64,000 nucleotides of DNA from Dehalococcoidia bacterium (GTDB lineage Bacteria > Chloroflexota > Dehalococcoidia > SM23-28-2 > RBG-16-64-32). A model generated the notes under the pieces. The model was not told where the DNA came from. It saw only the letters and a list, made by a program, of their open reading frames with translations, and did not search any database. The position numbers and the translations under genes were made by a program. This document shows, one piece after another, positions 3,073-43,431 of this stretch. The stretch covers positions 680,857-744,856 of the forward strand of contig OY762959.1 in the NCBI GenBank assembly GCA_963667205.1, written 5' to 3'. Position 1 is the stretch's first letter. Each line of letters starts with the position of its first letter.

Positions 3073-3787
3073 CGCGCCCGAGCCGGCGCAGGAGCGGCAG
3101 ACGATCCTGCGGCTGGACGGCGTCAGCAAGATCTACCGCTCCGGCGAGTTCGAAGTGAAGGCGATCGACGACGTCACGTTCCACGTTCGGGGCGGTGAGA
3201 TCGTCGCCGTCATGGGCCCGTCTGGATCCGGCAAGACGACGCTGCTGACGATCGCGGGGGCGCTACTGACGCCCACCGTGGGGCGGGTAGAGGTCTGCGG
3301 GATCGACGTCAGCGGCATGAGCGAGAGCCAACTGGCCGGTATAAGGCGGAACAAGGTTGGGTTCGTCTACCAGAGCTCCAACCTGCTGGAGGCGCTTACC
3401 GCGCTGGAAAACGTGCGCATCGTCTCCCAAAATCACGCAGACGACAAGCAGGCTGCGGGCGAGCGAGCGAAGGATGTGCTGGAGATGTTCGGCCTGGGCC
3501 ACCGAATGAACGCGCTGCCGAAGAATATGAGCGACGGCGAGAAGCAGCGAGTCGCCATCGCCCGGGCACTGGCGAAGGACCCCGAGCTGCTGCTGGCGGA
3601 CGAGCCGACGGCGAATCTGGACGCGAAACGTGGGCACGAGGTGATGGAGCTGCTGCGCCAGAAGGCGATGGAGCTGAACAAGGCGGTGGTCGTCGTCTCG
3701 CACGACAACCGCATCCGGCAGTTCGCAGACCGCGTGGTGTGGCTGGAGGACGGCCGCCTGAGCGACGACGAAACGCACTCCGTCTGA
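3044..3787 (+). CDS. ABC transporter ATP-binding protein (MacB/LolD/DevA-like)
   Basis: Walker A GPSGSGKTTLL, ABC signature LSDGEKQRVAIARAL, Walker B LLLADEPT. Confidence 0.88.
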   Translation: MTQSPSSKADAPEPAQERQTILRLDGVSKIYRSGEFEVKAIDDVTFHVRGGEIVAVMGPSGSGKTTLLTIAGALLTPTVGRVEVCGIDVSGMSESQLAGIRRNKVGFVYQSSNLLEALTALENVRIVSQNHADDKQAAGERAKDVLEMFGLGHRMNALPKNMSDGEKQRVAIARALAKDPELLLADEPTANLDAKRGHEVMELLRQKAMELNKAVVVVSHDNRIRQFADRVVWLEDGRLSDDETHSV

Positions 3788-12066: not shown

Positions 12067-12304
12067 TCGACAGACCAGCGGCAGACCCGCGTTCCCTGAT
12101 GCTGGTGGACCGCCTTCAGGGAGCGGCATTCTCCATGGGCTGGGCTGACCGCGCCAGCCGATGTTGGCCAGCGCCGCGACGCCACGGCCAGAGATGTATC
12201 CGCCACTAGACTCGCGTTGACGGTCGCAGTCCTGTCGCGCACAGCAACTGATGACCAGAAGGCGCAGGATGAAGAAGAGCCAGATGCGACGACTTACGAT
12301 GGCC

Positions 12305-12400
12305 GAATGTACCGACCGTCGAAAGAGCTCTTCGAGCTACAGGCTGCGCGGCGGGGCTCGTTCAGGCGACGGAGTATGATGGCACTAGGATGACGGCGTC
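12305..12400 (+). repeat. Degenerate partial copy of the 3' end of the 13850..14801 gene
   Basis: 12305-12400 (ATGTACCGACCGTCGAAAGAGCTCTTCGAGCTACAGGCTGCGCGGCGGG...GATGGCACTAGGATGA) aligns with 14700-14801 (ATGTATCGAACGTTGAAGGAGCTCCAGGGGCTACAGGCTGCCCGGCGGA...GATGGCACTAGAATGA). Confidence 0.5.
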
Positions 12401-14943: not shown

Positions 14944-16608
14944 CTAGCGGGACTCGGTGGGCGGTGGCAGCTCGAACAGGTCGAAGGGCGCCGGGACTAG
15001 GAGCTCAGCGTTGCGGTCGCTCAGCGAGAGGCCCGGCCCAGCCGGGTCCAACTGCGGATCACGGAAGGCGAGCTGACGAGCGACGCCGGCGAGGAGCCGC
15101 TGGTTGAGCCCGTCCTCCGGCGTCCCGTCCTCGGCGTCGCCGGGGTTCACCGTCGTCGCCAGGCCGTACATCGTCGTGAAGATGGAGAGCGTGCCGTCGC
15201 GGTTGTCGACGATCTCCAGCAGGCGGCCCTGCATCGGGAAGTCGAGGGCGCCGGCCGTCGTCACTTCCCAGTAGCCGCCACCGGCAGCGGCGGGCCTGGC
15301 CGAAATGCTGTTGCGCCCGGTGTGGCCGGAGAGCCAGAGGACCACGTTCGGAAAGCGGCCGACGAGATCCTCCACCTCCCCACGGAGGGTGCGAGGCTCG
15401 CCGTCGGTGCCGGGATACGGGTTCGTCATGACGGCGGACGGGTGGTGGCTAACGATCACCATCAGGCGATCGGCGTTTTCCGTCGTGACGAACTGGCCGC
15501 CGCCGTCGGCGTAGCTGCTGCTGTGAGCGGTCAGCCGTTCTTCCAGCCAGTCGTATTGCGCCTGGTCGAGGCTGCCGGAGGGGAAGCCGGACGGATTGGC
15601 CGAGTCGAGAACGATGAAGACGACGCCGTTCTCCTCGAAGGTATAGTGGGCACGGCCCTCATTCGCCCCCTGTATCGAGAAGCCATGCCCCAGCGGTCCC
15701 GGGCCTGTGTTCGGCGGCGGGAGGTGCTCGCGGATCCAGTCGGAGTGCGAGATCAGGCGTCGGTTCTTGTCGGCGCCCACGCCGCGGATTATCGTCCCCG
15801 GGTCGTTCAGGAGCTCGGCAGAAGGCCCGGGCCCGAATATTGAGCCGCTGTCGCAGACCTCTGCGAGGGCGGCGGGGCCGAGCGCGAATATCTTCTGCGC
15901 TCCGGTGGCGACCTCGGCGGCACGCTCGGTGAGCGGAAAGTTGCCCTGGCTGAGGGCGTCGTGGTTGCCGGCTACGGCGTACCAGGGGTAGTTGATCCCC
16001 TCCGGGATGAACGCCTCCTGGGCCAGCGTCAGCAGGTCTGCATAGGCCTTTGCCGGCGACTCCGTCTGCACGCCCTCGTAACCGACGGCGCCGCTCTCCG
16101 GATCGACCGGGACGCCGTCCATCAGGTCGATGAACCAGCGCAGCTCGTTGAACTGGGCGTTGTCGGCGGCGCTGCCGGTGTGGATCGCGAAGTCAACGGG
16201 GGCGCGGGTGACGGGACTGCGATCGACGACGTTGGCCTGGGCGATGAGCGCTTCGGCGACGTGCAGACTGAGTGACTCCTGCGACCGGAAGGACTTATCA
16301 TTGACGGCGGAGTTGCAGGCTTCGAGCCATTCGCTCCGCAGAGGCGATTCTTCATCGACGATGCCAAAGTCGGAGAGCTGGTGGAAGACAACGAGCAAAA
16401 GACGACGGTCCCGGCGGTCGCTCTGGGCCTGCGCAAGCTCCGTGCGGACCGTGTACGGCTCGCCCTCAGCGACGACGAGGTTCCCCTCGCTGTCCACGCC
16501 CAGCGTCTGAGTGAGCGTCGTCCCGGAAGGCGGTGGCTCGTCGCTCTTGCACGCGGCGGCGAGCGCGAGGAGAGCGAGGAGCGCGGCGCACACGAAGAGT
16601 CGGTGCAT
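14944..16608 (-). CDS. Calcineurin-like metallophosphoesterase lipoprotein
   Basis: ATG at 16608 gives MHRLFVCAALLALLALAAACKS (lipobox). GNHD metallophosphoesterase motif (YAVAGNHDAL). About 555 aa. Confidence 0.75.
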   Translation of the reverse strand: MHRLFVCAALLALLALAAACKSDEPPPSGTTLTQTLGVDSEGNLVVAEGEPYTVRTELAQAQSDRRDRRLLLVVFHQLSDFGIVDEESPLRSEWLEACNSAVNDKSFRSQESLSLHVAEALIAQANVVDRSPVTRAPVDFAIHTGSAADNAQFNELRWFIDLMDGVPVDPESGAVGYEGVQTESPAKAYADLLTLAQEAFIPEGINYPWYAVAGNHDALSQGNFPLTERAAEVATGAQKIFALGPAALAEVCDSGSIFGPGPSAELLNDPGTIIRGVGADKNRRLISHSDWIREHLPPPNTGPGPLGHGFSIQGANEGRAHYTFEENGVVFIVLDSANPSGFPSGSLDQAQYDWLEERLTAHSSSYADGGGQFVTTENADRLMVIVSHHPSAVMTNPYPGTDGEPRTLRGEVEDLVGRFPNVVLWLSGHTGRNSISARPAAAGGGYWEVTTAGALDFPMQGRLLEIVDNRDGTLSIFTTMYGLATTVNPGDAEDGTPEDGLNQRLLAGVARQLAFRDPQLDPAGPGLSLSDRNAELLVPAPFDLFELPPPTESR

Positions 16609-24068: not shown

Positions 24069-24731
24069 GTGCTACGCATTCGACTGTCCCGGGTAGGAAA
24101 GAGGAAACAGCCTGCCTACCGCATCGTGGTGACCGACCGCCGCAACCCCCGCGAGGGCGCCCACCTGGAGGTGATCGGCCACTTCAACCCGCTTACCGAT
24201 CCGCCGACGGTCAAGATCAAGGACGAGCGCGCGATCCACTGGCTCAAGGTCGGCGCGATGCCGTCGGACACGGCGGCCAGGATTCTTACCAAGGCGGGCC
24301 TCATGGAGCAGGCCGGACGAGAGCCGTTCGTCTACGTCGGCAAGCAGGTGCCGAAGGGCCAGAAGAACCCGAAGAAGGCCCGTAAGGAGGCAGAGGAGGG
24401 CGGCGCGCCCGCCGCGGCGGTAGCGTCCGCACCGGCCGCCAAGGTGAAGGCTGAGGCACCAGCCGAGGAGCCCGCAGCAGAAGCTCCGGCGGTAGAAAGA
24501 GCCCGCAGCCGAAGAGCCCGCAGCCGAAGAGCCCGCTGCCGAAGAGCCTGCAGCCGAAGAGCCCGCAGCCCGGCCGAAGAGCCCGCAGCCGAAGAGCCCG
24601 CAGCCGAAGAGCCCCAGGCCGAAGAGCCCGCAGCCGAAGAGCCCGCAGCCGAAGAGCCCGAGGAGGCAACGGCTGAGGAGCCGGCCGCAGAAGAGCCAGC
24701 GGCCGAGGAGAAGACCAAGGGAAAAAGCTAG
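24069..24731 (+). CDS. rpsP: 30S ribosomal protein S16 with about 130-aa low-complexity C-terminal extension (AEEPA repeats)
   Basis: GTG start. MLRIRLSRVGKRKQPAYRIVV.. S16 core is about 85 aa. The tail is encoded by a GAAGAGCCCGCAGCC 15-nt tandem array. It is read in two frames (RARSRRARSRR.. then AEEPAAEEP..) because of compensating indels at ~24497 and ~24570. Confidence 0.85.
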   Translation: MLRIRLSRVGKRKQPAYRIVVTDRRNPREGAHLEVIGHFNPLTDPPTVKIKDERAIHWLKVGAMPSDTAARILTKAGLMEQAGREPFVYVGKQVPKGQKNPKKARKEAEEGGAPAAAVASAPAAKVKAEAPAEEPAAEAPAVERARSRRARSRRARCRRACSRRARSPAEEPAAEEPAAEEPQAEEPAAEEPAAEEPEEATAEEPAAEEPAAEEKTKGKS

Positions 24732-24751: not shown

Positions 24752-24979
24752 ATGAAAGAGCTCATCGAGTACATGGCCCGCGCCATCGTGGACAACCCGG
24801 ACGACGTGGAAGTGACGGAGGAAGACGGCGGCGGTCACATCATCTTCCGGCTGAAGGTGGCGGAGGAGGACATGGGGCGCGTGATCGGCAAGCAGGGCCG
24901 GATCGCCAACGCCATGCGCTCCCTGCTGAAGGTGGCGGCGATCCGCCGTGACGAGAGGGTCATCCTCGAAATCGGCTAG
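24752..24979 (+). CDS. KH-domain RNA-binding protein (YlqC/UPF0109 family)
   Basis: 75 aa with a GKQGRI KH motif. Conserved position between rpsP and rimM. Confidence 0.8.
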   Translation: MKELIEYMARAIVDNPDDVEVTEEDGGGHIIFRLKVAEEDMGRVIGKQGRIANAMRSLLKVAAIRRDERVILEIG

Positions 24980-25487
24980 GCCCGGGGACGAGGTCGCGGA
25001 CGGTTACGTCGCCGTCGGGCGCGTGCTCGCCCCGTTCGGCGTGCGGGGCGAGATCAAGGTCGAGGCGCTGGCGCCGCTGCAGACGTTCAAGCGCGGCCGC
25101 AGCGTGACGCTGCGGGGCGACGTCCACGAGATTGAGGGCAGCCGCCGCCACAAGGGGGCAGTCCTCCTGAAGCTGGCCGGCATCGAAACTCCGGAGGCCA
25201 TCGCCAGCTATCGTGACTCCTACCTGCAGGTCCCGAAAGGCGACCTGGCCGCGCTGAGCGAAGGAGAGTACTACCGCTACGAGCTGATCGGCCTGCGCGT
25301 GGTCAGTACAGCGGGCGAGGAGCTGGGCGAGATCGCCGAAGTGCTGGAGCGGCCGGCGAACGACGTGTTCGTCGTGCGCGGGCCGAATGGCGAGGCGCTG
25401 ATCCCGGCGGTGGACGATATCGTGCGCAACGTCGACGTCGCCGGCGGCGTGGTCACGGTGGAGGTCGTGCCAGGCCTGCTGCCGTGA
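24948..25487 (+). CDS. rimM: Ribosome maturation factor RimM
   Basis: VAVGRVLAPFGVRGEIKV.. and PRC barrel. The ATG at 24948 overlaps the KH gene by 32 nt, so the true start may be slightly downstream. Confidence 0.85.
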   Translation: MTRGSSSKSARPGDEVADGYVAVGRVLAPFGVRGEIKVEALAPLQTFKRGRSVTLRGDVHEIEGSRRHKGAVLLKLAGIETPEAIASYRDSYLQVPKGDLAALSEGEYYRYELIGLRVVSTAGEELGEIAEVLERPANDVFVVRGPNGEALIPAVDDIVRNVDVAGGVVTVEVVPGLLP

Positions 25488-25536: not shown

Positions 25537-25612
<76 letters not shown>

Positions 25613-25689
25613 TTTGATTTACCGCCAACGACCCGCCTGAGGGTCAGCTACTGCCCGGCGCTGAGAATGCGGGGGGGGCACAATGTCGC

Positions 25690-25731
25690 CGGAGCCCCCG
25701 TAGCTCAGTGGAAAGAGCATCGGTTTCCTAA
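25690..25731 (+). repeat. attL: 42-bp direct repeat equal to the 5' half (positions -4 to 38) of tRNA-Arg(CCT)
   Basis: CGGAGCCCCCGTAGCTCAGTGGAAAGAGCATCGGTTTCCTAA is identical to 32458-32499. The sequence diverges immediately after the anticodon loop, so it is not a functional tRNA. Confidence 0.85.
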
Positions 25732-25835
25732 TTCGATTCCCGGCGTCCGCCACTGTCCGATAGCGTCCGTGTCAGATACAAGATAGTGGGGCACTGTCCG
25801 CATTCGTACGCTGGGCGTCGTCGTCAACCGTCGGC

Positions 25836-25858
25836 GTGGCTGTCAGCGTGGCTGTCAG
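25836..25858 (+). promoter_or_regulatory. Tandem GTGGCTGTCAG x2 (putative integrase arm-type binding sites, left arm)
   Basis: GTGGCTGTCAGcGTGGCTGTCAGa. The same 10-mer occurs twice, plus a degenerate third copy, at 32369-32403 in the right arm. Confidence 0.5.
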
Positions 25859-25998
25859 AAATGGGACCCAATGACGGCCCCTCGTCTCCCCCGTTATGGG
25901 GTCTACCCTTCTGGCGGTGGGGCGAAAAAAGGGTCGCGGGTGGAGGTCTAAGGTCGTGCGCGAGCACCGTAAACAAGAGACGGCGTCAAGGAATCCTG

Positions 25999-26372
25999 CT
26001 AAACGCCGACATCCCCGGCCGTGTCCGGAGATGTGATGACGTTGCCTGAGCTGCAGTTAGCGTCGCCGCAGTGCAGCACCTTCAGGTCGTCGTTGGTGCC
26101 GTCGTAGTAGCTGACGACCGGGTTGCCGCTGCCGTCCAGCGTCAGTGAGTTGAAGGAGCCCACAAGGCCCGTCGCATCAGGCACGTAATGACGTTGCCCG
26201 CGGCCATGACGACCCCCGCCAGCAGCACCCCCACCAGGGCGAGCGTCACCACGGCAGCGGTGAGCGGGGTTATTAGAAACCTTAGAACGGCGCGTCCAGT
26301 GGAGGACATGCCACACCCCCAATGTGTACGACAATGATACTGCTGATCATTCGGCGACACACAATCGTCCAT
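25999..26372 (-). pseudogene. Truncated, frameshifted fragment of the 43-aa Cys-repeat protein family (see 34381..36152)
   Basis: Signal/TM (ORF 26142..26372) followed in another frame by ..[48 protein letters not shown].. (ORF 25999..26334). About 1.5 repeats, then a stop. Confidence 0.45.
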
Positions 26373-26585
26373 GATCGCAATCAGAGATGTCAGCGATAGA
26401 TGCTCTTCTCAGTGAGTCCGTCGGCGCCGGCTACTTAGACCGGAACTGGCCGCCAGCCCTTGAGGAAGCCGGCGCCTGGCCACTGTCGAGTCTCCGACAG
26501 GCCTTCGTAAACGGACATGGTAGGCATCAGAGTGCCAGATGCGGTCGATGCAGGTCGCAGGGTCTCAGGCGCGAACTCCGAACGG

Positions 26586-28214
26586 TTATTCAACGACTAG
26601 AACCTCCGAGCCCATGAGGGGACACTCCGCCTCTTGCGTCACGCTAAGTCCAGCGTCGAAGCGCAGTACCTTGAGCGAGTCGACGGGTGTCACCTCGCCG
26701 CCGCAGTCCACGTCACCCCAAGGATGGGGGGACGCATTCTGCACATCGACGACCTGTCCGAAGTCCGGACAATCGCCGGTGTTGGTGCCCAGACCGGCGT
26801 CGAAGCGCAGAGTAAGCAGCGAGTCAACGGGGTCGGCGGAGCCGGAGCAGTTGCTGTCCCCCCAGGTCGCCTCGAGACCCTCAGGCAGCAGCCCGTGGAC
26901 GAAGATGTCGTCGACGCCATTCGTGTCGCCGGGCACCAGGTTGGTGGCGAACGACCGGAAGGCCACGACGAGTCCGTTGGCGCTGATGGCCGGGTCGAAG
27001 GAACCAGCGTCGCTCTCGCCGCTGTCGCTGCTGACACTAACTCGCGTCGTCTCGCCCGTCTCGCGGTCGTGGACGAAGACGTCGCTGACGCCGTTGGTGT
27101 CGCCGGGCACCAGGTTGCTGGCGAACGAGAAGAACGTGACATGGCGGCCGTCACCACTGATGTCCGGGGCAAAACTCTCCTCGTTGCTCTCGACGCCCGC
27201 GGTGCTCACGCTCACGCGGGTCGTTTCTCCGGTCTCCAGGTCGTATACGAAGATGTCGCTTCGGTCGTTCGTGTCGCCGGGCACGAGGTTGGTGGCGAAC
27301 GACCGGAAGGCCACGTATCGGCCTTCGCCGCTTATCGCGGCGTCAAAGCTGGCGCCGTTCGGCTCGACGCTAGCGGCACCGGCGCTAGAGCTGCGGAATA
27401 CCTAGCCATCGGAGTGAAGCGGTGTAACCTCGTTCGCCATGAGGTCCCATACCTGCAGAAACCCGGCACTTGCGAAAATGACTCGGCGGCCGTCGGCGCT
27501 AAAGGTGAGTTGGCAGGTGTCGTCGGGTTTGAAGCCCGTATGAATTACTATGCCCGTATCCAACCCCTCCACGTAGAGGCCTGCCCCCTGCGCCCCGCTC
27601 TCGGCATCGGCGTAGTAAACGACGCGGCGACCGCCGGGGCTGGTGGTCTTACCTAGTTTCGGGCATGTGTTGCCACCTTCAAAGAGGCCTAAATTGTCGA
27701 CGTCGAGGAAGCCTTTTATGGCGAATCCTGTGATAGCTAGCCCTAGGATGTCCTGATGGGATATTGCCGCGAGGCTCACGGAGAACTCGAAGGCAATCGC
27801 CTGTCCATCGTCACTGATGTCCGGGGAACGGCTGAAGTCATTACTACCACCGCCTATGCTATTCTCGCTGACGCGCAGGGTCTCGCCAGTGACTACGTCG
27901 CGGCGGAAGACGTCCAGGACCCCGTTCGTGTCGCCCAGGACAAGGTTCGTGGCGCTGGATTCGAAGGCCACGTAGCGGCCGTCGCCGCTGATGACAGGGG
28001 GGCCGCTGCCCGCGTCGGCCTGTCCGCCCTGGCTGTCCACGCTGATACGCTCGGTAATGGCAGCGGGCGACGCCTCGGTCGGGGCACCCGCCGGGAGCAG
28101 CATCGTGAGCAGGCCCAGCAGCGGCAGTAGAACGAGCCAGAACGACAGCGTACGGACTGGAGGGAGCGAGGAAGGGACGCGGCTAGGGAGCGGCTTCGTG
28201 GTCTCAGGGTGCAC
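26586..28214 (-). CDS. Secreted PD40-repeat beta-propeller protein with C-terminal Cys-dockerin-like module; single in-frame TAG at 27402-27404
   Basis: ORFs 27402..28214 and 26586..27314 are in the same frame. The translation is continuous across the TAG (..VTPLHSDG*VFRSSSAGAASVEPNGASFDAAISGEGRYVAFRSFATNLVPGDTN..). Repeats are of the ISGDGRYVAF.S.A.NLVPGDTNG..DVF type. Confidence 0.6.
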
Positions 28215-28578
28215 TGTGTAACCTCCTGGCCCACAGATCGGGCTCGGGCGTTAGGCCGACATTATATACCTCAGAGTGAGGGTGGCTAGGGGGACGCGCC
28301 TGTAAGGCCTTCCAGGTCCAGTACCGTTGCCAGGCAGTGCGTTGCCAGCGGATGACGGTCTCAGGCTGAACGAACACGACCGCCGACTGCCAGCGCGACC
28401 ACAGCTGGGAGAGGAATGACCAGAAGAGGCGGTCAGATGGGGCAAGCCTGGGTCGACGCGACTGGCGGGAGAGGACAGCGAGTTGCTGGCGGAGAGCCAG
28501 GTTCTCAAGGACGAGATGCCGTCGCGAGCTCAGGGCTGCGCGCAGGGCGGAGCCGAGGAGCGACAAGTAGGTGATCAA
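28204..28578 (-). mobile_element. IS transposase N-terminal fragment (rve/DDE-type, IS481-like), truncated
   Basis: ..LENLALRQQLAVLSRQSRRPRLAPSDRLFWSFLSQLWSRWQSAVVFVQPETVIRWQRTAWQRYWTWK.. is typical of the HTH N-termini of IS481-like transposases. Homology is lost after about 90 aa. No catalytic domain. Confidence 0.55.
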
Positions 28579-28919
28579 TGCGGGGCCTCCATTAGGGTGT
28601 AGTGCCCCAACGCGGGCCCCAACTAGCTCACGGAGTCAACCGCTCCAGATACGGATGACATTTTGGCACCCCACAGCGCTATCACTGCCAGCCCCCAACT
28701 CACGTAGGTAGGCGAAGTGACCACAGCCGTCCGTCCCTTGCACTAAGGCTTACCCTCTCAGCGCGAGCCGATGCCGCCGTGTGGGGCATTACGGTCGGAA
28801 CGGGTATGGCTCAAGCCGTCGATTCCGATCCTGATCGCGAGCCTCGCTATCCTCATCGGAGCGCTCAGCCCAGGTGGATCCTCTCGATCCGTAGCGACCG
28901 GACTCGATGGTCGCGTACC

Positions 28920-29009
28920 AGCATTGCAGTGGCTGATCAGGCGCTGTATGTCCTCGGAAGAAAACGGCTGGACGATTTTCTGCGGGACTTTAATGTTCTT
29001 GACCTCCAC
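28920..29009 (-). pseudogene. Remnant of a second tyrosine integrase (linker/SAM-like region only)
   Basis: ..EVKNIKVPQKIVQPFSSEDIQRLISHC.. parallels ..VTPPRDRKQEVQPLSPEEARAFLDAV.. of the intact integrase at 31219. Followed by non-homologous sequence. Confidence 0.4.
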
Positions 29010-29087
29010 TACCTATGAAAGCCCTACGTGGACGACATATACTCGAATCAGTAAAACACCTATCAGACGAAAGGATGGCATATCTCC

Positions 29088-29672
29088 ATGACGGAAGAGC
29101 GACGAAATATAGTCACGTCTGCTAAGAACCTCGTGGTCGACGCTGTGAAAGGCGTGGGCGATATCCTGCAGGCCGCGGTCGACACCGTGAGCGGTACACT
29201 CGTCAGCGCGCTTAAGGGTGTCGGCGCAATCACGCAGGAGGCAACCAACGTTATCTTTGACACCGTCCGTGGGGTAATCCAGGGCGTGGCGGATACTGGC
29301 CAGGATCTCACCAAGGCCGCCAAGGGGATCATGATCGGCCTCGTGCGCGCCACCGGCGAGACAGGCACGGAGACGATGGGTGCTATCGAGACAACGGCCA
29401 GTGCTGTTGTCAAGAGCACGGCAGAGGTCGGTGGAGACATCGTGGACGCCGCCAAGGGCACCGTCGAAGGCGCGATCGAAGGGGCCAAGGAGCTGGGACT
29501 GAGCGCGGAAGACGCCGCGTCGGCCGCCGCAACCGGCGCTGTGAAGGCGGCTGGCGACATCAGCGCCTCGGCCGGGGCGCGCGTTCGAGATGGCCTGAGC
29601 GGCACGATCTCAGGTGTAAAGGTCGTTGTCAAAGCACCGTTCAATAACGAGGACCATAAGGAAGAGAAGTAA
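29088..29672 (+). CDS. Ala/Gly/Val-rich amphipathic 11-mer-repeat protein (LEA/phasin-like), island cargo
   Basis: RBS AAAGGATGG. Repeats VDAVKGVGDIL / VSALKGVGAIT / DTVRGVIQGVA / AAKGIMIGLVR / DAAKGTVEGAI. No family assignable from sequence alone. Confidence 0.5.
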   Translation: MTEERRNIVTSAKNLVVDAVKGVGDILQAAVDTVSGTLVSALKGVGAITQEATNVIFDTVRGVIQGVADTGQDLTKAAKGIMIGLVRATGETGTETMGAIETTASAVVKSTAEVGGDIVDAAKGTVEGAIEGAKELGLSAEDAASAAATGAVKAAGDISASAGARVRDGLSGTISGVKVVVKAPFNNEDHKEEK

Positions 29673-29803
29673 CTCCCGAGCCACAAGAGGTCCGGCGGGT
29701 CATTCGACGCCAAACTTCGTCTTGAATAGGTAGCGGACGAACTCGCGGGATTTGGCGATGGTAGCCAACCGGGATCGGTTGCCGCGAGATGAGGGGGCGA
29801 GGC

Positions 29804-29995
29804 TCACGCGCTCGTCTCTTCAGCCTGCTCGGCCTGCAGTTGGGCCACGAAGCGTTCGACCTCGCTTGTCGGAATCCTGATCGCTCGTCCAATCCGAACT
29901 GTGCTCAGGCGACCCTCCTGGATCAGTTCGTAGGTCTTGCTCCGGCCGAGGCTCATGTGCTCGGCGGCCGCAGGGATCGTCAGTAGTAGCTGCAT
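29804..29995 (-). CDS. Small HTH DNA-binding protein (excisionase/AlpA-like)
   Basis: ATG at 29995: MQLLLTIPAAAEHMSLGRSKTYELIQEGRLSTVRIGRAIRIPTSEVERFV (HTH_17-type). Confidence 0.55.
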   Translation of the reverse strand: MQLLLTIPAAAEHMSLGRSKTYELIQEGRLSTVRIGRAIRIPTSEVERFVAQLQAEQAEETSA

Positions 29996-30096
29996 TGTGC
30001 TTTCCTCCGTCCTGAACTCATTCGCTACGATCAGGATGGATGTCAGCGCGCAGAACCGCACGAAACGATATTTGCCAATTATCGTTTCGCGGGGGC

Positions 30097-30948
30097 CTAT
30101 GTCACGCGCAGGAGAGAGAGGAGGTGGTCAACCTGCTTAATCCCCCCGCGAATAACGGGCTCGTCGGGAGCGATGTCTATCTCGTCCTCGTCGGCTCCGT
30201 CAGTTATCTCATCCGCGATGTCCTTAACGCTCCTGCTTTCGCATTTGCGCAGATACCACCACTGGACGTTGCGTTGTAGTTGACCAAGGGAGTCGCTTCG
30301 AGGCTTCCTGGTCGGAAGGCCGCTTCGATCCCCTACGATTCTTACTATCTTTCGTAGGCAAAGTTCAGCCTCCTGAAGGTTTCTGACCCTGAGATCAATA
30401 GAGCTTCCTTCTTCGTCCGAGAACAATCTAACGGAGGGCAGACCCTGTCCGAGCGCGTAGATGCCAGCCTTCAGATCCGTCTCCCGATGAGTGTAGGAGG
30501 TCAGGGCAGCAACTTGAAGATGGATGGTCAGTCGGAACGGCGTTGTACCCACGGGGGATGGTCTAAATTCGCCACTGTCAGCGGTGAACCGACCGGCGAC
30601 AAATCCATGTATCAAGCTGGGGCCCCAGGCCTCGCCGAGATTCAGCTTCGCATTGAGGTCGGTGACCGATTCTAGATACGGCTTGACCCGCTCCGCGCGC
30701 GATTCCACTCGCGCACGATCCTCGGGGCCAAGCGGATCGGCCTAGGCCGTATCCATCAAATCCGCGATGTCTAGGAAGCTTGAGCGATCATGGCGTCCGA
30801 CGGTCTCGTCAAAGACCTTGATCAGGCGAGGCAGTTCGGCCCTCAGGGTCGTTTTTGCGGCCAGGAGCCTTGGCAGCCACTGCCATATCACCGCGTGCGC
30901 CGCTTGGAGCTCGTGCGGTGCCGGCGGCTTGCCATCTCGTTTGTCCAT
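30097..30948 (-). CDS. Hypothetical island protein (about 280 aa) interrupted by in-frame TAG at 30742-30744
   Basis: ORFs 30742..30948 and 30097..30708 share a frame. Translation continues ..LMDTA*ADPLGPEDRARVESRAERVKPYLES... No recognisable domain. Confidence 0.4.
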
Positions 30949-31007
30949 AGTTGTCCATCCTGCGTATTGACACCATTATACATTTATGTTTGCATGGTGA
31001 CAATACT

Positions 31008-31226
31008 ATGAACAGCAAGCTGGCATATTCACTTGATGAAGTCGCGGAGCTACTTGGCGTCTCCCGCGCATCCGTCGATCGTGCCATTCGCGCCGGAAAG
31101 ATGCGCGTGGCACGGCTCGGCCACCGGACAGTTCGAGTGACGGACGAAGCTTTGCGTGACTACCTGAAGGCACACGAAGAGACTGGGCCGCGTGACAGGC
31201 AGAAAGGTACGGAAGGCGATGGGTAA
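31008..31226 (+). CDS. xis: Excisionase-type HTH protein
   Basis: MNSKLAYSLDEVAELLGVSRASVDRAIRAGKMRVARLGHRTVRVTDEALRDYLK. Overlaps the int start by 8 nt. Confidence 0.6.
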   Translation: MNSKLAYSLDEVAELLGVSRASVDRAIRAGKMRVARLGHRTVRVTDEALRDYLKAHEETGPRDRQKGTEGDG

Positions 31227-32364
31227 GAAGCGGGGTAACGCTGAAGGCAGCATCCACAAGCGCCGTGACAATCGCTGGGCAGCCACGATTCATCTGGGAT
31301 ACGAGAATGGGAAGCGAAAGAGACGAACGTACTACTCCAGTACGGGGCATGGCGCTGTAAAGAAGCTGGCCGCCGCGCAGCGGGCCCTTGATGGAGGGCT
31401 GCCTCTCCCCTCCGAGACCGCCACCGTGTCCGCGTTTCTCCGGGGCTGGGTCGATGGGTCTGTACGCCCAAAGCTCAGGCCAAGAACCTTCCAGTCGTAC
31501 CAGATGATCGTCGAGCGACACTTGGTGCCCGCACTGGGCCGGACTCGACTGACTCGGTTGACGCCCGACGCACTCGAAACCTACATGAACCGCAAGTTGG
31601 AGGACGGCCTGACACCTCTCACGATCCGCAATCATTTGGCTGTCTTGCGTAGCGCACTTAGTCAGGCGCTGAACCGGGGACTGGTCCAGCGAAATGTCGC
31701 CTCGCTCGTGACGCCGCCACGAGACAGGAAGCAGGAGGTTCAGCCTCTTAGTCCAGAGGAGGCGCGAGCCTTTCTCGACGCGGTCAAGGGCAACAGACTA
31801 GAGGCGCTGTATGGCCTCGCTCTGGGGTTGGGCCTCCGCCAGGGCGAAGCCCTTGGCCTCACGTGGGATGACATTGACCTGGAATCTGGAACATTGTCTG
31901 TCCGACATACACTTCAACGCTACGATCGTGCGTATCACCTGGACGAGCCGAAGACATCGAGATCGAGACGCACGATCGCGCTCCCACGCCCCCTGGTCAA
32001 GGCGCTGCGCGGCCACAGAACCCGTCAGGTCGAGGAGCGACTGCGAGCAGGGCAAGGCTGGGAGGGTGATCGTTGGAGTCTGATCTTCACGACGATGGCG
32101 GGCAAGCCACTCTCAAGTGCAGTCGTCACACATGGCTTCCAGGAGACCCTCGCGGCTGCCGGTCTTCCTCGACAGAAGTTCCATGATCTCCGGCACGCTG
32201 CTGCATCGTTTATGCTGGTTCAGGGCGTCGCTCTGAGAGTAGTCATGGAAGTGCTGGGCCACAGTGACATCGCGGTCACAGCTAACACGTACAGCCACGT
32301 AATGCCTGATCTCCAGAGGGACGCTACCGAGAGCGTCGGAGAGCTTCTCTGGGCCACTTCTTGA
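31219..32364 (+). CDS. int: Tyrosine-type site-specific integrase
   Basis: SAM-like N-domain. Catalytic R...HxxR...Y (..HDLRHAAASFMLVQGVALRVVMEVLGHSDIAVTANTYSHV). Lies 97 nt upstream of the tRNA-Arg start. Confidence 0.9.
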   Translation: MGKKRGNAEGSIHKRRDNRWAATIHLGYENGKRKRRTYYSSTGHGAVKKLAAAQRALDGGLPLPSETATVSAFLRGWVDGSVRPKLRPRTFQSYQMIVERHLVPALGRTRLTRLTPDALETYMNRKLEDGLTPLTIRNHLAVLRSALSQALNRGLVQRNVASLVTPPRDRKQEVQPLSPEEARAFLDAVKGNRLEALYGLALGLGLRQGEALGLTWDDIDLESGTLSVRHTLQRYDRAYHLDEPKTSRSRRTIALPRPLVKALRGHRTRQVEERLRAGQGWEGDRWSLIFTTMAGKPLSSAVVTHGFQETLAAAGLPRQKFHDLRHAAASFMLVQGVALRVVMEVLGHSDIAVTANTYSHVMPDLQRDATESVGELLWATS

Positions 32365-32368
32365 TCTG

Positions 32369-32403
32369 GTGGCTGTCAACGTGGCTGTCAATGGTCGCTG
32401 TCG
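32369..32403 (+). promoter_or_regulatory. Tandem GTGGCTGTCAA x2 plus degenerate third copy (putative arm-type sites, right arm)
   Basis: GTGGCTGTCAAcGTGGCTGTCAAtGGTCGCTGTCGcc, 12-nt period, between the int stop and attR. Same motif as 25836-25858. Confidence 0.5.
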
Positions 32404-32461
32404 CCGAGGTCAGCGACTCGACGAGCGACCCCGTTCGAATCTAGAATGACTCGGAGCCCCC

Positions 32462-32537
32462 GTAGCTCAGTGGAAAGAGCATCGGTTTCCTAAACCGTGT
32501 GTCGCAGGTTCGAGTCCTGCCGGGGGCACCACTATTT
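32462..32537 (+). tRNA. tRNA-Arg (anticodon CCT), reconstituted at attR
   Basis: Acceptor GCCCCCG/CGGGGGC, D-arm GCTC/GAGC, anticodon loop TTCCTAA, T-loop TTCGAGT, CCA encoded. Its 5' 38 nt are duplicated at 25694-25731. Confidence 0.9.
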
Positions 32538-34380: not shown

Positions 34381-36152
34381 TCAGGTGAAGTCGAAGACTA
34401 GCTTCACATCGCTGCCCATGCCGGGGCAGTCCACCCCCTGGCTGACGCTCAGCCCGGCGTCGAAGCGCAGGATCTTCAGCGAGTCGACGGGCGAGACCTC
34501 ACCCGAGCAGTCGACGTCGCCCCACAGATGCAGCGAGGCATCCTGGACGTCGATGATCTGACCGAAGAGCGGGCAGTCGCCGGTGTCGGTGCTCAACCCG
34601 GCATCGGAACGCAGGGTGATCAGCGAGTCCACGGGATCGACGGCCACTGAGCAGTTGTTGTCGGCCCAGACCGCTTGCTGGGCGAAAGGCGTGGCGGTCG
34701 CCGTGGGAGTGGGCTCCGTCGTGAGAATGATCGGCTCGCCGACGTCGTGGTCGAAGTCGAGGGGCGAATCGAGGAGGAAGGAGCCGAAGCCGGTGATGCC
34801 CTTGATCTCTTCGTTGGTGCCACCGGGATTGATGCTGATGAAGTCGCCGACGTTGAACCCGGCTGCCGAGGCGACGTCGATCTCGCTGTCGCCGGCGGCG
34901 GCGCCGGCGATCGTCTCGGTCTCACTGGGCATCGTCGTGGGACTCGGGCTTGGGGGCTCAGCGTCGGGGTGGGCGAGACGGTCGCTGCGGCGCCGCAAGT
35001 GGCGCTGACGCAGTGCAGCACCTTCAGGTCGCCGTTGGAGACATCGTAGTAGCTGGCGACCGGGAAGCCGCTGGCGTCCAGCTTCAACGACATGTGGGCG
35101 CCGATGTTGCCCGGCCCGTCCGGAGAGGCGATAACGTTGCCGGCGCTGCAGGTGGCATCGCCGCAGTGGATCACCTTGACGTCCTCGTTGGTGACGTCGC
35201 GGTAGGCCACCACCGGATTGCCGGCGGCGTCGAGCTCCAACGAGCTAAACGCGCCAACGTTGTCCACACCGTCCGGGACCTTGATGACGTTACCCGGCTG
35301 CAGTTGGCGTTGCCGCAGTGGACGACTTTCAGGTGTTGTTGTTGGCGTCGTAGTAGCTGACGACCGGAAAACCAGCGTCGTCCAGCGCCAGCGACGGCCA
35401 CGATCCGACAAGGGCGGACGCGTCCACCGTAGTGATGACGTTGCCAGCGCTGCAGATGGGGTTGCCGCAGTGGATCACTCGCAGGTTGATGGGGAATGCC
35501 TGGTAGGCCACCACCGGGTTGCCGAGCGCGTCCAGCATCAGGGAAGGGAAGCTGGCGAAGATGCCGGTGTCGGGAGTGGTGATCGTGTTGCCCGCGCTAC
35601 AGTTCGGGTCGCTGCGGTGGAGGATCTTCAGGTCGCGGTTCGTGCTGTCGGTGTAGGCGACAATCGGATTGCCGGCCCCGTCCAGCGCAAGGGACGTAGA
35701 GAGAGCGACATCGTCCACCCCGTCCGGCGAGGTGATGGAGTTGACGCCAGCGCAGTTCGGATTGCTGCAGTGGATCACCTTCAGATCACCGTTGGTTCGA
35801 TCATGATAGCTGATCACCGGGTTGCCGCCCGCGTCCAGCACCAGCGACGTGCCTTCGCCGACTTCCGTCTGTGACCCGTCTACGGAGGTGATGACGTTGC
35901 CGGCGCCACAGCCGGGATCGCCGCAGTGCACCAACTTCAGGTCGCCGTTGGTTTCGTCCCAGTAGCTGATGACGGGACTGCCGCCGGCGTCCAGCGCCAT
36001 CGACGTGTACCCGCCGACACATCACCCACCGTGTCAACAGCGACGATGCTGGTGGTGCTGGCGCCGCCGGAGGGCGCGTGCCAGAGGAGGGCCGCGACCG
36101 CGAAGGCCGCGATCGCGGCAACGATCCAAAGCTGCGGCTTGACAAGCGTCAT
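34381..36152 (-). pseudogene. Secreted protein of tandem ~43-aa Cys-containing repeats (beta-propeller-like) plus C-terminal Cys-dockerin-like module; at least 4 frameshifts
   Basis: Signal peptide (ORF 35937..36152). Repeats G..SL.LD..GNPV.SY.D.TN.DLKV.HCGD..CSAGN.IT..D spread over ORFs 35329..36000, 35171..35401 and 34620..35411. Linker plus module in ORF 34381..34998. A 2-nt deletion relative to sister repeats is visible near 35300-35340. Confidence 0.6.
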
Positions 36153-38076: not shown

Positions 38077-40533
38077 CTAGAGCACCGAGATCGGGTCGAC
38101 GTCGAGCGTCCAGCCGCGGGGGAGCGGTTCGTCGCGCAGGATGGCAGTCGGGTCGTCGCCTCGGACGACGATGTTCCAGCGCCAGCGACCGCGGATGCGC
38201 GGCACGTAAGCCGGCGACGGGCCAAGGACGTCGATGTTCGGGAGGCCGAGGCGGGCGCACTCTTTGCGCAGGCCGCGGGCCATTGTCGCCGCCTGCTCGC
38301 GGGAGTAGTCGGCGTTCGTGTGCGCGTAGGTGAGGCGCACGAGCCGCCCGAACGGCGGGTAGCCCAGGCGCCGGCGGTTCTCGATCTCCCGCGAGTAGAG
38401 CGCGTGGTAGTCGTGCGTTGACATCGCCTCGATCGCGTAGTGGTCCGGCGTGTAAGTCTGGACGACAACGCGACCGCCCTTCGGGCCGCGGCCGGCGCGC
38501 CCAGCGACTTGCTCCAGCAGCTGGAACGTGCGCTCGCCGGCGCGGAAGTCCGGCAGGTGGAGCGCGATGTCCGCCGAGATGACGCCGACGAGCGTGACGA
38601 GGGGGATGTCGAGCCCCTTGGCGATCATCTGCGTGCCGACGAGGATGTCCGCCTCGTGGGCGACGAAGCGGGAGAGGATCGCCTCGTGGGCGTCGCGGCC
38701 GCGCGTCACGTCGCTGTCCCAGCGCAGGGTCCGGGCGCCCGTGAACTCGCGCTGTGCCGCCGCCTCTACTTTCTCGGTGCCGATGCCGACCTGGCGCAGG
38801 CGGCTGCCGCCGCACTCGGGACAGGTGCCGGGCAGCGACGAGCGGCGGTGGCAGTAGTGGCAGACGAGGCGGTCGAGTGATTCGTGGTAGGTGAGTGCGA
38901 CGGCGCAGGAGCGGCACTCCGGCACGTGGCCACAGTCGCGGCACTGAACGAAGGACGCTGCGCCGCGACGGTTGAGGAAGAGCATCACCTGCTCACCGGC
39001 GTCGAGCGCGGTGCGGACTGAGCGCGCCAGCGTACGGCTGAAGATGCTGCGGTTGCCGGCCTTGAGCTCCTCCCGCAGGTCGACGACTTCGACCTGCGGC
39101 AGCGGCGCCGGCCTGACGACGCCGCCGTCCCGGATCAACCGCTGGGAGAGCTCGAGCAGGCGGTAGGCCTTCGCCGACGCGCGAAAGTGGCTCTCGACGT
39201 CGGGCGTCGCAGAGCCGAGGACGAGCGTAGCGCCGGTGCGCGCGCAGAGTTCCTCTGCCGCCTTGCGCGCGTGGTATCGCGGCGAGCCCTCCTGCTGCTT
39301 GTACGTCCACTCGTGCTCTTCATCGATGACGACGAGACCGAGATCAGGCTGCGGCGCGAAGAGCGCCCCTCGTGGGCCGATGACGATACGGTACTGCCCA
39401 TCGCGGACCGCGTGCCACATGTCGAAGTGCTCGCCGAGCGAGAGGTCGCTGTGCATCACGGCGACCTCGCCGGGGAAGCGCTCGCCGAAACGGCGCACGG
39501 TCTGCGGCGTGAGCGAGATCTCCGGCACGAGCACGATCGCGCGCTTGCCGAGGGCGGCGGCGTGCTCGATCGCGGCGAGGTAGACCTCCGTCTTGCCGCT
39601 GCCTGTGACGCCGTGAAGGAGGAAGGCGCTCCGAGCGTCCGGCCCTCGTGAGGCGTCCAGCGCGGCGATGATCTCGGCCGCCGCACGCCCCTGGTCCGCC
39701 GTCAGGTCAGCCGCGGGCTTGCGCTCGTACTCGCGGCCGGCCAGCGGGTCGCGCACGAGGGTAACGTCCTCTCTCGCGACGACGCCTTCGGCCTCGAAGT
39801 CGCGGAGGGTGGCCGGCGTCAGGCCGAGCGCGCGAGCCCGGCTCAGCGGCAGCGATCCTTCATCCGCCAGCGCGTCGAGGACGGTGGCCCGGCGGAGGGC
39901 TCGCTGGGAGCCGTCGTTTCGAAGCGCGGCTGAGCGGCTTCGGACTTCGTCCGGAGCGAGGAGCAGCATCAGGTGCGCGACGACGCGCGGCTGCACGACG
40001 GGGCGCGCCAGCCGATACGTCCGCGCCACCAGACCACGCCGGACGAGCGAGGCGATCGCGCGGGCGGCGCCGCGCACGTCCTTGAGCGAGCGCTTGAACT
40101 CCTCCGACTCGGCCTCCTCGCGCTCGCGGAGCGCGTCGAGGACGGCTCGCTCGGCTTCGGTGAGGTCGCTGGGGGCTTCGCCGGCCCAGCAGGCGAGGCG
40201 CAAGAGCGTCTGCGGCCGGCGCTTGAAGCCGGGCGGCAGCATGAGGGAGACGCAGTCGAAGAGCGGGGCGCGGTAGTAGTCGCTGAGCCAGGAGGCGAGC
40301 GATATGCGCTCCGGCGTGACGAGGGGGCGCTCGTCGATCACGCCCTCGATGTCGCGGGCGTCCTGGTAACGAGGCTCAGAGGTGACCTCGACGACGACGC
40401 CCTGCAGCGTGCGCGCGCCAAACGGAACGTAGACGGCCTGGCCGGGGGCGACGCTCAGGCCGTCCGGGACGCGATAGGTGAATGTCTGGCGGATGGGCGC
40501 GGCGGCGTTGACGGCGACTTCGGCGTAAGGCAT
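38077..40533 (-). CDS. priA: Primosomal protein N' (PriA helicase)
   Basis: 818 aa. Walker A GVTGSGKTEVY, DEEH box, Zn-finger Cys cluster (CRDCGHVPECRSCAVALTYH..CHYC..CPECG). Confidence 0.9.
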   Translation of the reverse strand: MPYAEVAVNAAAPIRQTFTYRVPDGLSVAPGQAVYVPFGARTLQGVVVEVTSEPRYQDARDIEGVIDERPLVTPERISLASWLSDYYRAPLFDCVSLMLPPGFKRRPQTLLRLACWAGEAPSDLTEAERAVLDALREREEAESEEFKRSLKDVRGAARAIASLVRRGLVARTYRLARPVVQPRVVAHLMLLLAPDEVRSRSAALRNDGSQRALRRATVLDALADEGSLPLSRARALGLTPATLRDFEAEGVVAREDVTLVRDPLAGREYERKPAADLTADQGRAAAEIIAALDASRGPDARSAFLLHGVTGSGKTEVYLAAIEHAAALGKRAIVLVPEISLTPQTVRRFGERFPGEVAVMHSDLSLGEHFDMWHAVRDGQYRIVIGPRGALFAPQPDLGLVVIDEEHEWTYKQQEGSPRYHARKAAEELCARTGATLVLGSATPDVESHFRASAKAYRLLELSQRLIRDGGVVRPAPLPQVEVVDLREELKAGNRSIFSRTLARSVRTALDAGEQVMLFLNRRGAASFVQCRDCGHVPECRSCAVALTYHESLDRLVCHYCHRRSSLPGTCPECGGSRLRQVGIGTEKVEAAAQREFTGARTLRWDSDVTRGRDAHEAILSRFVAHEADILVGTQMIAKGLDIPLVTLVGVISADIALHLPDFRAGERTFQLLEQVAGRAGRGPKGGRVVVQTYTPDHYAIEAMSTHDYHALYSREIENRRRLGYPPFGRLVRLTYAHTNADYSREQAATMARGLRKECARLGLPNIDVLGPSPAYVPRIRGRWRWNIVVRGDDPTAILRDEPLPRGWTLDVDPISVL

Positions 40534-42693: not shown

Positions 42694-43431
42694 TCAGAAC
42701 CCCTCGCCGAGCTGCTCGGAGAGCCACTCCTTCTCTTCATCACTTAAGGAGAGGCGCTCCAAGAGGTCCGGCCGGCGCTGTGCGGTGAGCAGCAGGTTTT
42801 GCCGGCGGCGCCACTTTTCCACCTCAGCGTGGTGGCCGGAGAGCAAGACGTCCGGCACCTGCCAGCCGCGGAACTGAGGCGGCCGCGTGTAGTGAGGCGC
42901 CTCCAGGAGTCCGTCGGCGAACGACTCCTCCTCGACGGAATCAGGCGAGCCGAGCGCACCCGGCACCTGGCGGACGACGGCGTCTACGAGCACCATCGCC
43001 GGCAGCTCGCCGCCGGAGAGCACGTAGTCGCCGATGCTGACCTCGTGGGTTGCGAGGTGCTCGTGGACGCGGGCGTCGAACCCTTCGTAGTGACCGCTGA
43101 GGACGATCAGCCGCTCAGCCGCCGCCAGCTCCAGCGCCAGGTCGTGGCCGAAAGGGCGGCCGGCCGGCGTCATGAGGACGATGGGGCCGCGCGCGGGCGC
43201 CATCTCCAGCACCGCTTCGGTCGCAGTAAAGACTGGTTCCGGCTTCATCACCATGCCGGGGCCGCCGCCGTAGACGTAGTCGTCGGCGACCTGGTGCTTG
43301 CCCTCCGCCCAGTCGCGGATGTTGTGGAGGTTAATCGAGACGAGCCCGGCGTCGATCGCGCGCTTGATAATGGATTCGTCGAACGGCCCGCGGAACATGC
43401 CGGGGAAGAGCGTCAGGATGTCGATGCGCAT
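42694..43431 (-). CDS. trmD: tRNA (guanine37-N1)-methyltransferase
   Basis: MRIDILTLFPGMF...VYGGGPGMV..; 245 aa. Confidence 0.95.
   Translation of the reverse strand: MRIDILTLFPGMFRGPFDESIIKRAIDAGLVSINLHNIRDWAEGKHQVADDYVYGGGPGMVMKPEPVFTATEAVLEMAPARGPIVLMTPAGRPFGHDLALELAAAERLIVLSGHYEGFDARVHEHLATHEVSIGDYVLSGGELPAMVLVDAVVRQVPGALGSPDSVEEESFADGLLEAPHYTRPPQFRGWQVPDVLLSGHHAEVEKWRRRQNLLLTAQRRPDLLERLSLSDEEKEWLSEQLGEGF

Follow-up and report, generated by a model that had tools for sequence, protein, structure and literature searches.

What keeps a tRNA gene whole once foreign DNA has entered it, and which side supplies the half that is displaced? This question is raised by a stretch of 64,000 nucleotides from a Dehalococcoidia bacterium of the Chloroflexota (assembly GCA_963667205.1, contig OY762959.1, positions 680,857 to 744,856 of the forward strand), hereafter the window, in which an intact tRNA-Arg(CCT) gene is preceded, about 6.8 kb upstream, by a copy of its own 5' half. 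We consider it very probable that a 6.76-kb integrative element was placed into tRNA-Arg(CCT) by its own tyrosine integrase, of apparently heterobivalent type, rebuilding the 5' half of the gene. The features on which this reading is built are the following:

25537..25612, plus strand: tRNA-Ala(CGC) (ARAGORN; Rfam, 70.1 bits)
25690..25731, plus strand: attL, the displaced tRNA-Arg(CCT) 5' fragment, non-functional as a tRNA (exact 42-nt repeat; no ARAGORN call; Rfam, 21.5 bits; no cloverleaf)
25836..25857, plus strand: left putative arm-type repeats, two copies of GTGGCTGTCA at 12-nt spacing (repeat search; starting 105 nt from the attL anticodon loop)
31008..31226, plus strand: xis, an excisionase gene overlapping the start of int (HTH_17, 1.4e-9; TIGR01764, 43.3 bits against a cutoff of 28.8)
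31219..32364, plus strand: int, a tyrosine integrase of 381 aa, reading toward the tRNA (PF00589, 91 bits; PF14659)
32369..32390, plus strand: right putative arm-type repeats, GTGGCTGTCA-ac-GTGGCTGTCA (starting 5 nt past the int stop and ending 97 nt before the anticodon loop)
32418..32447, plus strand: promoter-like site TCGACG-18-TAGAAT, within element DNA, whose end is 9 nt from the tRNA start (promoter scan, 9/12)
32452..32493, plus strand: attR, the identity block forming the 5' half of the functional gene (exact 42-nt repeat)
32456..32531, plus strand: intact tRNA-Arg(CCT) (ARAGORN; cloverleaf fold, z -3.45)

An exact repeat bounded by the anticodon loop

Two copies, and no more, of the 42-mer CGGAGCCCCCGTAGCTCAGTGGAAAGAGCATCGGTTTCCTAA are present in the 64-kb window, forming a direct repeat at 25690-25731 and 32452-32493 whose starts are 6762 nt apart on the same strand, with the fragment upstream of the intact gene; its match count in dinucleotide shuffles was 0/100. 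The block comprises 4 upstream nucleotides plus positions 1-38 of tRNA-Arg(CCT), and at its inner edge it stops with the final base of the anticodon loop. The two copies, identical at 42/42 positions, diverge at the first base past the loop and have no similarity beyond the block. ARAGORN called tRNA-Ala(CGC) at 25537-25612 and tRNA-Arg(CCT) at 32456-32531, and called no tRNA at the left copy, which scored 21.5 bits against the Rfam tRNA model, under the gathering score of 29, and had no cloverleaf fold (z +0.47); a cloverleaf is the minimum-free-energy fold of the right gene (z -3.45). The tRNA part of the left copy begins 81 nt past tRNA-Ala, and the spacer between tRNA-Ala and the fragment measures 77 nt (25613-25689). 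GC content is 61.1% within the element, and 65.5% and 66.4% in the flanks.

Most of what an earlier note on this DNA had read at these ends holds. The left copy of the 42-bp repeat had been placed exactly, at 25690-25731; the match does stop after the anticodon loop, 81 nt past tRNA-Ala, the block ending at position 38; and the cargo is indeed lower in GC, albeit by a modest drop. The claim that the left copy is a non-functional 5' fragment agrees with the ARAGORN, Rfam and folding results, and with it the alternative of two paralogous tRNA genes fails. The repeat at the right end is likewise real, but its positions had been given 6 nt too high: the copy placed at 32458-32499 lies at 32452-32493, and the tRNA start and end placed at 32462 and 32537 lie at 32456 and 32531.

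Two further candidates near the left end were tried and rejected, namely, a concealed remnant of the tRNA-Arg 3' part, or one of an old right arm, in 25613-25689 (non-significant; 312/2000 and 3111/5000 shuffles, respectively), and a vestigial T-arm in TTCGATTCC, directly after attL (non-significant; 473/2000 shuffles).

Empty sites in related genomes

The earlier note had called this DNA an integrative element and had pointed to related genomes as the place to find an empty site, and such sites exist. Two relatives, L217 (GCA_029262695.1) and L219 (GCA_004196295.1), which were reached through RimM homologues 83-84% identical and belong to species other than that of the window, encode RimM, tRNA-Ala(CGC) and, after 27 nt, an intact tRNA-Arg(CCT), with no element between the two tRNAs. 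In L218, a third relative, tRNA-Ala and tRNA-Arg are separated by 3.1 kb that hold unrelated genes and neither an integrase nor a 5' fragment. The 40-60 nt upstream of its tRNA-Arg nevertheless align with the right arm and promoter-like stretch of the element (0/5000 shuffles), and L218 is by this alignment a decayed element remnant of which the tRNA-proximal part survives. The intervening genes of L218 (9455-12600) include CBS, rhodanese and ArsR-like genes.

Closer to the window, the element is present in 4/4 assemblies whose RimM or SDR protein is the same, and the two 42-mers are exact in each. The species of the window is represented in the samples ERZ28669063, ERZ28763718, ERZ25073973, ERZ25074053 and ERR14231557. 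Same-species strains show one or two IS3-family insertion sequences (IS) within it (L129:3205-4334; L135:12118-13247 and 15382-16459), that of L129 interrupting a PD40 gene. These strain-specific insertions show that its residence has been of sufficient length for them to build up. A metagenome search for an empty-site pattern gave 0 matches, with an assumed tRNA spacer of 60-90 nt against the 27 nt of the real sites, and a RimM search of genome contigs returned relatives of no more than 42% identity, uninformative on the empty site.

The neighbourhood offers other observations. In L217, a 21-nt copy of the tRNA-Arg(CCT) 3' end (1308-1328; 20/21 identical; 0/2000 shuffles) occurs downstream of the intact gene, at a distance of 65 nt; it resembles the scar of an ordinary 3'-type element, and tRNA-Arg(CCT) may therefore be targeted from both sides. 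The rpsP-rimM-trmD-rplS cluster is split in the window: rimM (24948-25487) is followed by tRNA-Ala and tRNA-Arg, while trmD (42694-43431, minus strand) and rplS are inverted some 10-17 kb downstream, beyond PriA (38077-40533, minus strand). As the empty-site relative L217 has the same split, this arrangement predates the element. Ribosomal protein S16 (24069-24731, an open reading frame, ORF, of 220 aa) has a long Ala/Glu/Pro-rich C-terminal extension, the called product ranging from 193 to 315 aa across strains and relatives.

Integrase, excisionase and arm-type repeats

Both recombination genes stand where the earlier note had put them, a tyrosine integrase at 31219-32364 and an overlapping xis at 31008-31226, and their family matches (PF00589 and PF14659; HTH_17 and TIGR01764) agree with those calls. 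The integrase is 100% identical to P0001, and xis is 74-78% identical to its counterparts in the related loci L001-L003 (tblastn). The catalytic residues R207, K245, H322, R325, H348 and Y358 (R-K-H-R-H-Y) are invariant across 30 homologues, and the enzyme is neither a Xer nor an integron integrase, scoring 54-92 bits against XerC, XerD and integron models whose cutoffs are 265-335. Its N-terminus gave no match to the Arm-DNA-bind Pfam families, and R5, E9, G10, D17, W20 and R35 within it are invariant in 30 homologues. The closest annotated phage integrase is Int of mycobacteriophage Giles (35% identity over 97% of the length), and the closest solved structure is Int of Tn1549 (PDB 6EN0; E 6e-16 over the core-binding and catalytic domains); in viral contigs the search returned relatives of no more than 32% identity.

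The sequence GGCTGTCA has only four copies in the window, all of them in tandem pairs in the two arms. The left and right pairs are near-identical and lie 105 and 97 nt to either side of the anticodon loop. Judging by their sequence and placement, the GTGGCTGTCA pairs are probably arm-type integrase-binding repeats, and the integrase would be heterobivalent, as is the lambda-Int type.

Proposed course of integration

The order of these parts dictates that attP must hold the 42-mer between the right arm and the left arm, that the displaced piece is the promoter-proximal 5' half, and that the intact gene adjoins int. The deduction in the earlier note that attP carried the 5' part of the tRNA is thus required by the geometry, and the same geometry recurs in an element in tRNA-Leu, L221, which is described below.

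We propose that integration would proceed as follows. First, attP would carry int, two tandem arm-type repeats, the promoter-like region and a tRNA copy from -4 to 38, with a second arm-repeat pair on the other side of the core. Second, recombination would most likely take place by strand exchange in the 7-nt anticodon loop, TTCCTAA, since the inner edge of the block lies at the loop in two independent elements whose arms are symmetric about it, and since this is the established pattern of tRNA-targeting tyrosine integrases (PMC8371274). Third, the promoter-proximal 5' half of the host gene would be left stranded beside tRNA-Ala as attL, while the 5' half borne by the element would be joined to the host 3' half as attR, so that the gene stays intact; the present tRNA-Arg(CCT) of the window would be such a composite. 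The predicted attP junction reads …AGAATGACT-42-mer-TTCGATTCC… (in its longer form, TCTAGAATGACT + CGGAGCCCCCGTAGCTCAGTGGAAAGAGCATCGGTTTCCTAA + TTCGATTCCCGG), and the predicted attB junction …AATGTCGC-42-mer-ACCGTGTG… (in its longer form, CACAATGTCGC + 42-mer + ACCGTGTGTCGC).

Transcription of the rebuilt tRNA

In the empty sites tRNA-Arg lies 27 nt behind tRNA-Ala, upstream of which TTATAAT is present, and the pair therefore probably forms one operon. As 6.8 kb now separate tRNA-Arg from that upstream promoter, the rebuilt tRNA is presumably transcribed from element DNA, which may occur from the TAGAAT promoter-like site or by read-through from int; no plus-strand terminator was predicted between int and the tRNA. 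The site at 32418-32447 is a candidate for an element-borne promoter of the rebuilt tRNA. Its motif is kept in L001, in L221 and in the decayed remnant L218, and in L221 the spacing between the element's TAGAAT and the tRNA equals that of TATAAT in the native flank that was displaced.

Related integrases and a second complete element

The integrase search yielded roughly 2700 homologues. Where integrases are 86-88% identical to that of the window (L001, L002 and L004), tRNA-Arg(CCT) lies about 91 nt beyond int on the same strand, and the downstream host genes differ; Int thus travels with the 5' side of the tRNA. Among 80 metagenomic homologues of 40-54% identity, 20 have a tRNA 70-200 nt past the int stop. 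In seven of them the tRNA shares the strand of int and turns its 5' end toward int, and in 13 it is on the other strand and turns its 3' end toward int, as is usual. Two direct repeats of approximately GCTGTCAA, spaced by 12-13 nt, follow the int stop in most loci, the motif differing by locus. The layout of int, arm repeats, spacer and core is constant among these homologue loci, and the orientation of the tRNA alone varies.

A neighbour-joining tree groups nine loci (the window, L004, L001, L003, L221, L157, L220, L223 and L206) in a clade with a bootstrap of 97/100. Eight of the nine have an intact same-strand tRNA downstream of int with its 5' end facing int, L003 having the 5' half only, and five tRNA identities are represented: Arg-CCT, Leu-TAA, Leu-CAA, Ser-TGA and Thr-CGT. 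A second clade in which all loci are of the same-strand type, at Arg-CCT (L138, L140 and L143), has a bootstrap of 100/100. A single clade of all same-strand loci was unsupported (28/100). In L223, whose integrase is a 57%-identical relative of that of the window, an rve-family transposase gene (11293-12318) sits between the arm repeats and tRNA-Thr(CGT), the gap from int to the att core being 1.2 kb.

The second complete element, L221, is about 9.3 kb long, encodes an Int 61% identical to ours and has, at tRNA-Leu(TAA), the geometry of the window element: a 41-nt repeat, exact in both copies, takes in the gene from -1 to +40, and there are arm repeats at 98 and 104 nt from the loop. Among 30 further integrase loci, a second att copy within reach was found in L196 alone (27 nt, 89% identical, of the 3'-end type).

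Cargo genes

Between the left arm and xis the element holds the following:

25999..26334, minus strand: ORF of 111 aa with a repeat domain, either cargo or a fragment of host origin (tblastn, 49-63% identity to chromosomal repeats at 34974-36009)
26586..28214, minus strand: two ORFs with PD40 (beta-propeller) repeats, 26586-27314 and 27402-28214 (Pfam PD40)
28204..29009, minus strand: two short ORFs, of 124 aa (28204-28578) and 83 aa (28758-29009) (family scans empty)
29088..29672, plus strand: repetitive protein of 194 aa (weak sub-threshold phasin and tape-measure-like matches)
29804..30061, minus strand: second HTH_17 / excisionase-family DNA-binding protein, likely a regulator (Pfam, TIGR01764; 52-54% identity in L001-L003)
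30097..30948, minus strand: ORFs of 203 aa and 68 aa (no family matches)

The ORFs in 25999-27314 are paralogues of chromosomal genes at 34381-36009, some 2-4 kb to the right of the element, with identities of 70% for a dockerin-like C-terminus and up to 63% for the repeat domain; by tblastn, the C-terminus of the PD40 ORF at 26586-27314 is 70% identical to the chromosomal gene at 34396-34677. Given these nearby paralogues, the cargo of the left half looks host-derived rather than foreign. The two short ORFs at 28204-29009 had no match in Pfam, PHROGs or NCBIfam and are not called as genes in L129, L130, L133 and L134; they are probably gene debris. The possibility that the 83-aa ORF is an integrase fragment found no support in tblastn or in the family scans. 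The ORFs of 203 and 68 aa had no tblastn match in relatives and are confined to the lineage of the window element. Between xis and the leftward 68-aa ORF there is a strong divergent promoter-like site (minus strand, 31003-30975; 11/12). Scans against Pfam, PHROGs and NCBIfam detected no capsid, terminase, type IV secretion system, relaxase or replication genes, the weak tape-measure-like matches being those of the 194-aa protein.

Alternative explanations

Several observations weigh against an integrase-driven insertion with an element-borne 5' half, at least in the form proposed here. With regard to mechanism, the point of crossover is unreadable from identical sequences, and in L003, whose integrase is 86% identical, int, arms and a 5' half are present while an intact tRNA is missing. 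That locus (3050-3217) has positions 1-43 of a tRNA-Arg(ACG)-like gene, comprising the 5' half and the complete anticodon arm, with the same arm repeats after int, followed by unrelated DNA up to a converging gene; ARAGORN made no tRNA call at this place. L003 could be a secondary-site integration, a case in which the 3' half was lost, or an ongoing change of specificity. With regard to transcription, the promoter match is weak (9/12), and in the separate clade of L138 and L140 a conserved TATCTA motif abuts the tRNA, a position ill-fitting a promoter, which makes read-through from int an equally good candidate. With regard to mobility, there is no same-species empty site among the four assemblies with the same RimM or SDR protein; the 60-mer of the predicted attP junction had 0 matches in viral contigs; the element lacks the primase-like domain protein and the other genes that its closest relatives have to the left of the HTH_17 gene; and it holds gene debris and copies of host-like genes. 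Since it is present in all four assemblies, in some with an extra IS, it may be fixed and immobile.

This last point is the core of the alternative that survives best, to which we give somewhat less than an even chance: the insertion was real, but what is left is a fixed and domesticated relic that neither excises nor transfers and whose promoter and 5' half the host relies on. Such a history would fit the distribution and strain-specific insertions just mentioned, the absence of the replication-type genes of L001 and L002, a left half filled with debris ORFs and host-like paralogues, and the failure to find the attP junction in the viral contigs searched; L218 shows that decay of this sort occurs, with the promoter-like stretch retained. 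A relic is harder to reconcile with full-length int and xis, with arm repeats intact on both sides, and with att copies identical at 42/42 positions. As the displaced fragment is presumably unselected, this perfect identity argues for recency or continuing activity, and the window element may be mobile at present.

A quite unlikely alternative places the crossover at, or just upstream of, the 5' end of the tRNA, in which case the tRNA at attR would be all host and the 38-nt piece at attL would be a recognition sequence of the element. What speaks for it is that the D-loop variant at attR always matches the tRNA type of the host lineage (GTGGAAAG for L218 and the window; GTAGGATAG for L001, the form that the empty-site genomes L217 and L219 also have), which would be automatic if attR were host DNA. 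However, in two independent elements the block spans from the 5' edge of the gene to the anticodon loop (+0 or +2), the pattern expected if the element must restore what it displaces; moreover, the loop, unlike the 5' edge, is the centre of symmetry of the arms (97/105 and 98/104 nt), and cleavage in the anticodon loop is established for tRNA-targeting tyrosine integrases (PMC8371274).

Finally, an old tandem duplication of tRNA-Arg, with a decayed upstream copy and intervening genes unrelated to the repeat, could draw on a 77-nt spacer that exceeds that of the empty sites, but it is at odds with a sharp 42/42 identity without similarity beyond, and with int, xis and arm repeats exactly at the ends, and is effectively refuted by the empty sites of relatives and by L221, which repeats the architecture at a different tRNA.

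Implications and comparison with known systems

Insertion by the element's own integrase, with replacement of the 5' half, remains the reading that we prefer, and its consequences reach beyond this locus. Where integration targets a tRNA gene in its 5' half, the element is forced to bring a promoter, and the host tRNA then depends on mobile DNA. It is tempting to speculate, although we hold this only tentatively and think it somewhat improbable, that a Chloroflexota-wide integrase lineage has inverted the classical anticodon-loop attP, its elements bringing a promoter together with the 5' half of tRNA-Arg, -Leu, -Ser or -Thr. If so, integration would hand transcriptional control of a host tRNA to a mobile element, and, as relatives of the same layout use the 3' orientation, the family would record a 3'/5' flip at a dyad-symmetric core. 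The window, L221 and the two well-supported clades together form a collection of bacterial cases in which the attP architecture is fixed, usable for locating the site of strand exchange, for following transcription of the rebuilt tRNA, and for studying 3'/5' and tRNA-identity switching. In practical terms, island finders applied to metagenome-assembled genomes of Chloroflexota must accept upstream 5' fragments.

The 5'-half configuration is rare but already described, and is the mirror image of the usual replacement of the 3' half. That it is the less common sublocation, as the earlier note had stated, is evident in Islander (Hudson, Lau & Williams 2015), where 3760 of 3919 islands have a 3' fragment and 159 a 5' fragment, and whose configuration filter explicitly permits upstream 5' fragments (PMC4383910). 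In its terms, the window holds an intact tDNA and a same-orientation cognate end fragment, the 5' fragment being upstream, and an element whose 6762 nt fall inside the range of 2-200 kb. As in the 5'-fragment islands of that collection, a tyrosine integrase lies between the intact tRNA and the upstream same-orientation fragment, and attP is centred on the anticodon (PMC4383910). Those islands are a 4% minority found mainly in Proteobacteria-rich RefSeq genomes, whereas here whole integrase clades of uncultured Chloroflexota are involved, and the window has, in addition, a conserved promoter-like motif beside the borne 5' half. The present analysis contributes the empty sites, another complete element, a pattern that is consistent within a clade whatever the tRNA identity, and a candidate promoter.

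The link that we draw between the window and pTN3 of the Thermococcales (Cossu et al. 2017, in PMC8371274) is one of functional analogy. pTN3-like integrases use the tRNA's 5' half, and the tRNA is then expressed from the integrase promoter, an arrangement 'seldomly encountered in bacteria' (PMC8371274). In both cases attB is the 5' half and the gene is rebuilt from element DNA, and in the window int likewise reads into the tRNA with no predicted terminator; however, pTN3 is an archaeal plasmid or virus-related element, whereas the window integrase appears to be a bacterial heterobivalent enzyme with arm repeats. Giles Int and Tn1549 Int are distant relatives, and the window element is without phage structural or conjugation genes.

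Phages of tRNA-dependent lysogeny (PMC10865867) are described as needing phage-encoded tRNA genes to establish lysogeny. As in the window, integration into a tRNA gene threatens tRNA function, but in the window it is the interrupted gene itself that would be rebuilt, from the borne 5' half.

With the anticodon-loop sublocation class (Williams 2002, in PMC8371274; 'A' in Islander) the window shares a block bounded by the loop, a tyrosine integrase with an excisionase, and small size. The usual member of that class has a block that extends as far as the gene's 3' end; here the blocks end at position 38 (window) or 40 (L221) and reach the 5' end plus 1-4 nt. Classical elements carrying the 3' part leave the native promoter with the gene, whereas in the window it is lost. 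pSAM2 is an example of such a classical anticodon-loop attP element carrying the 3' part.

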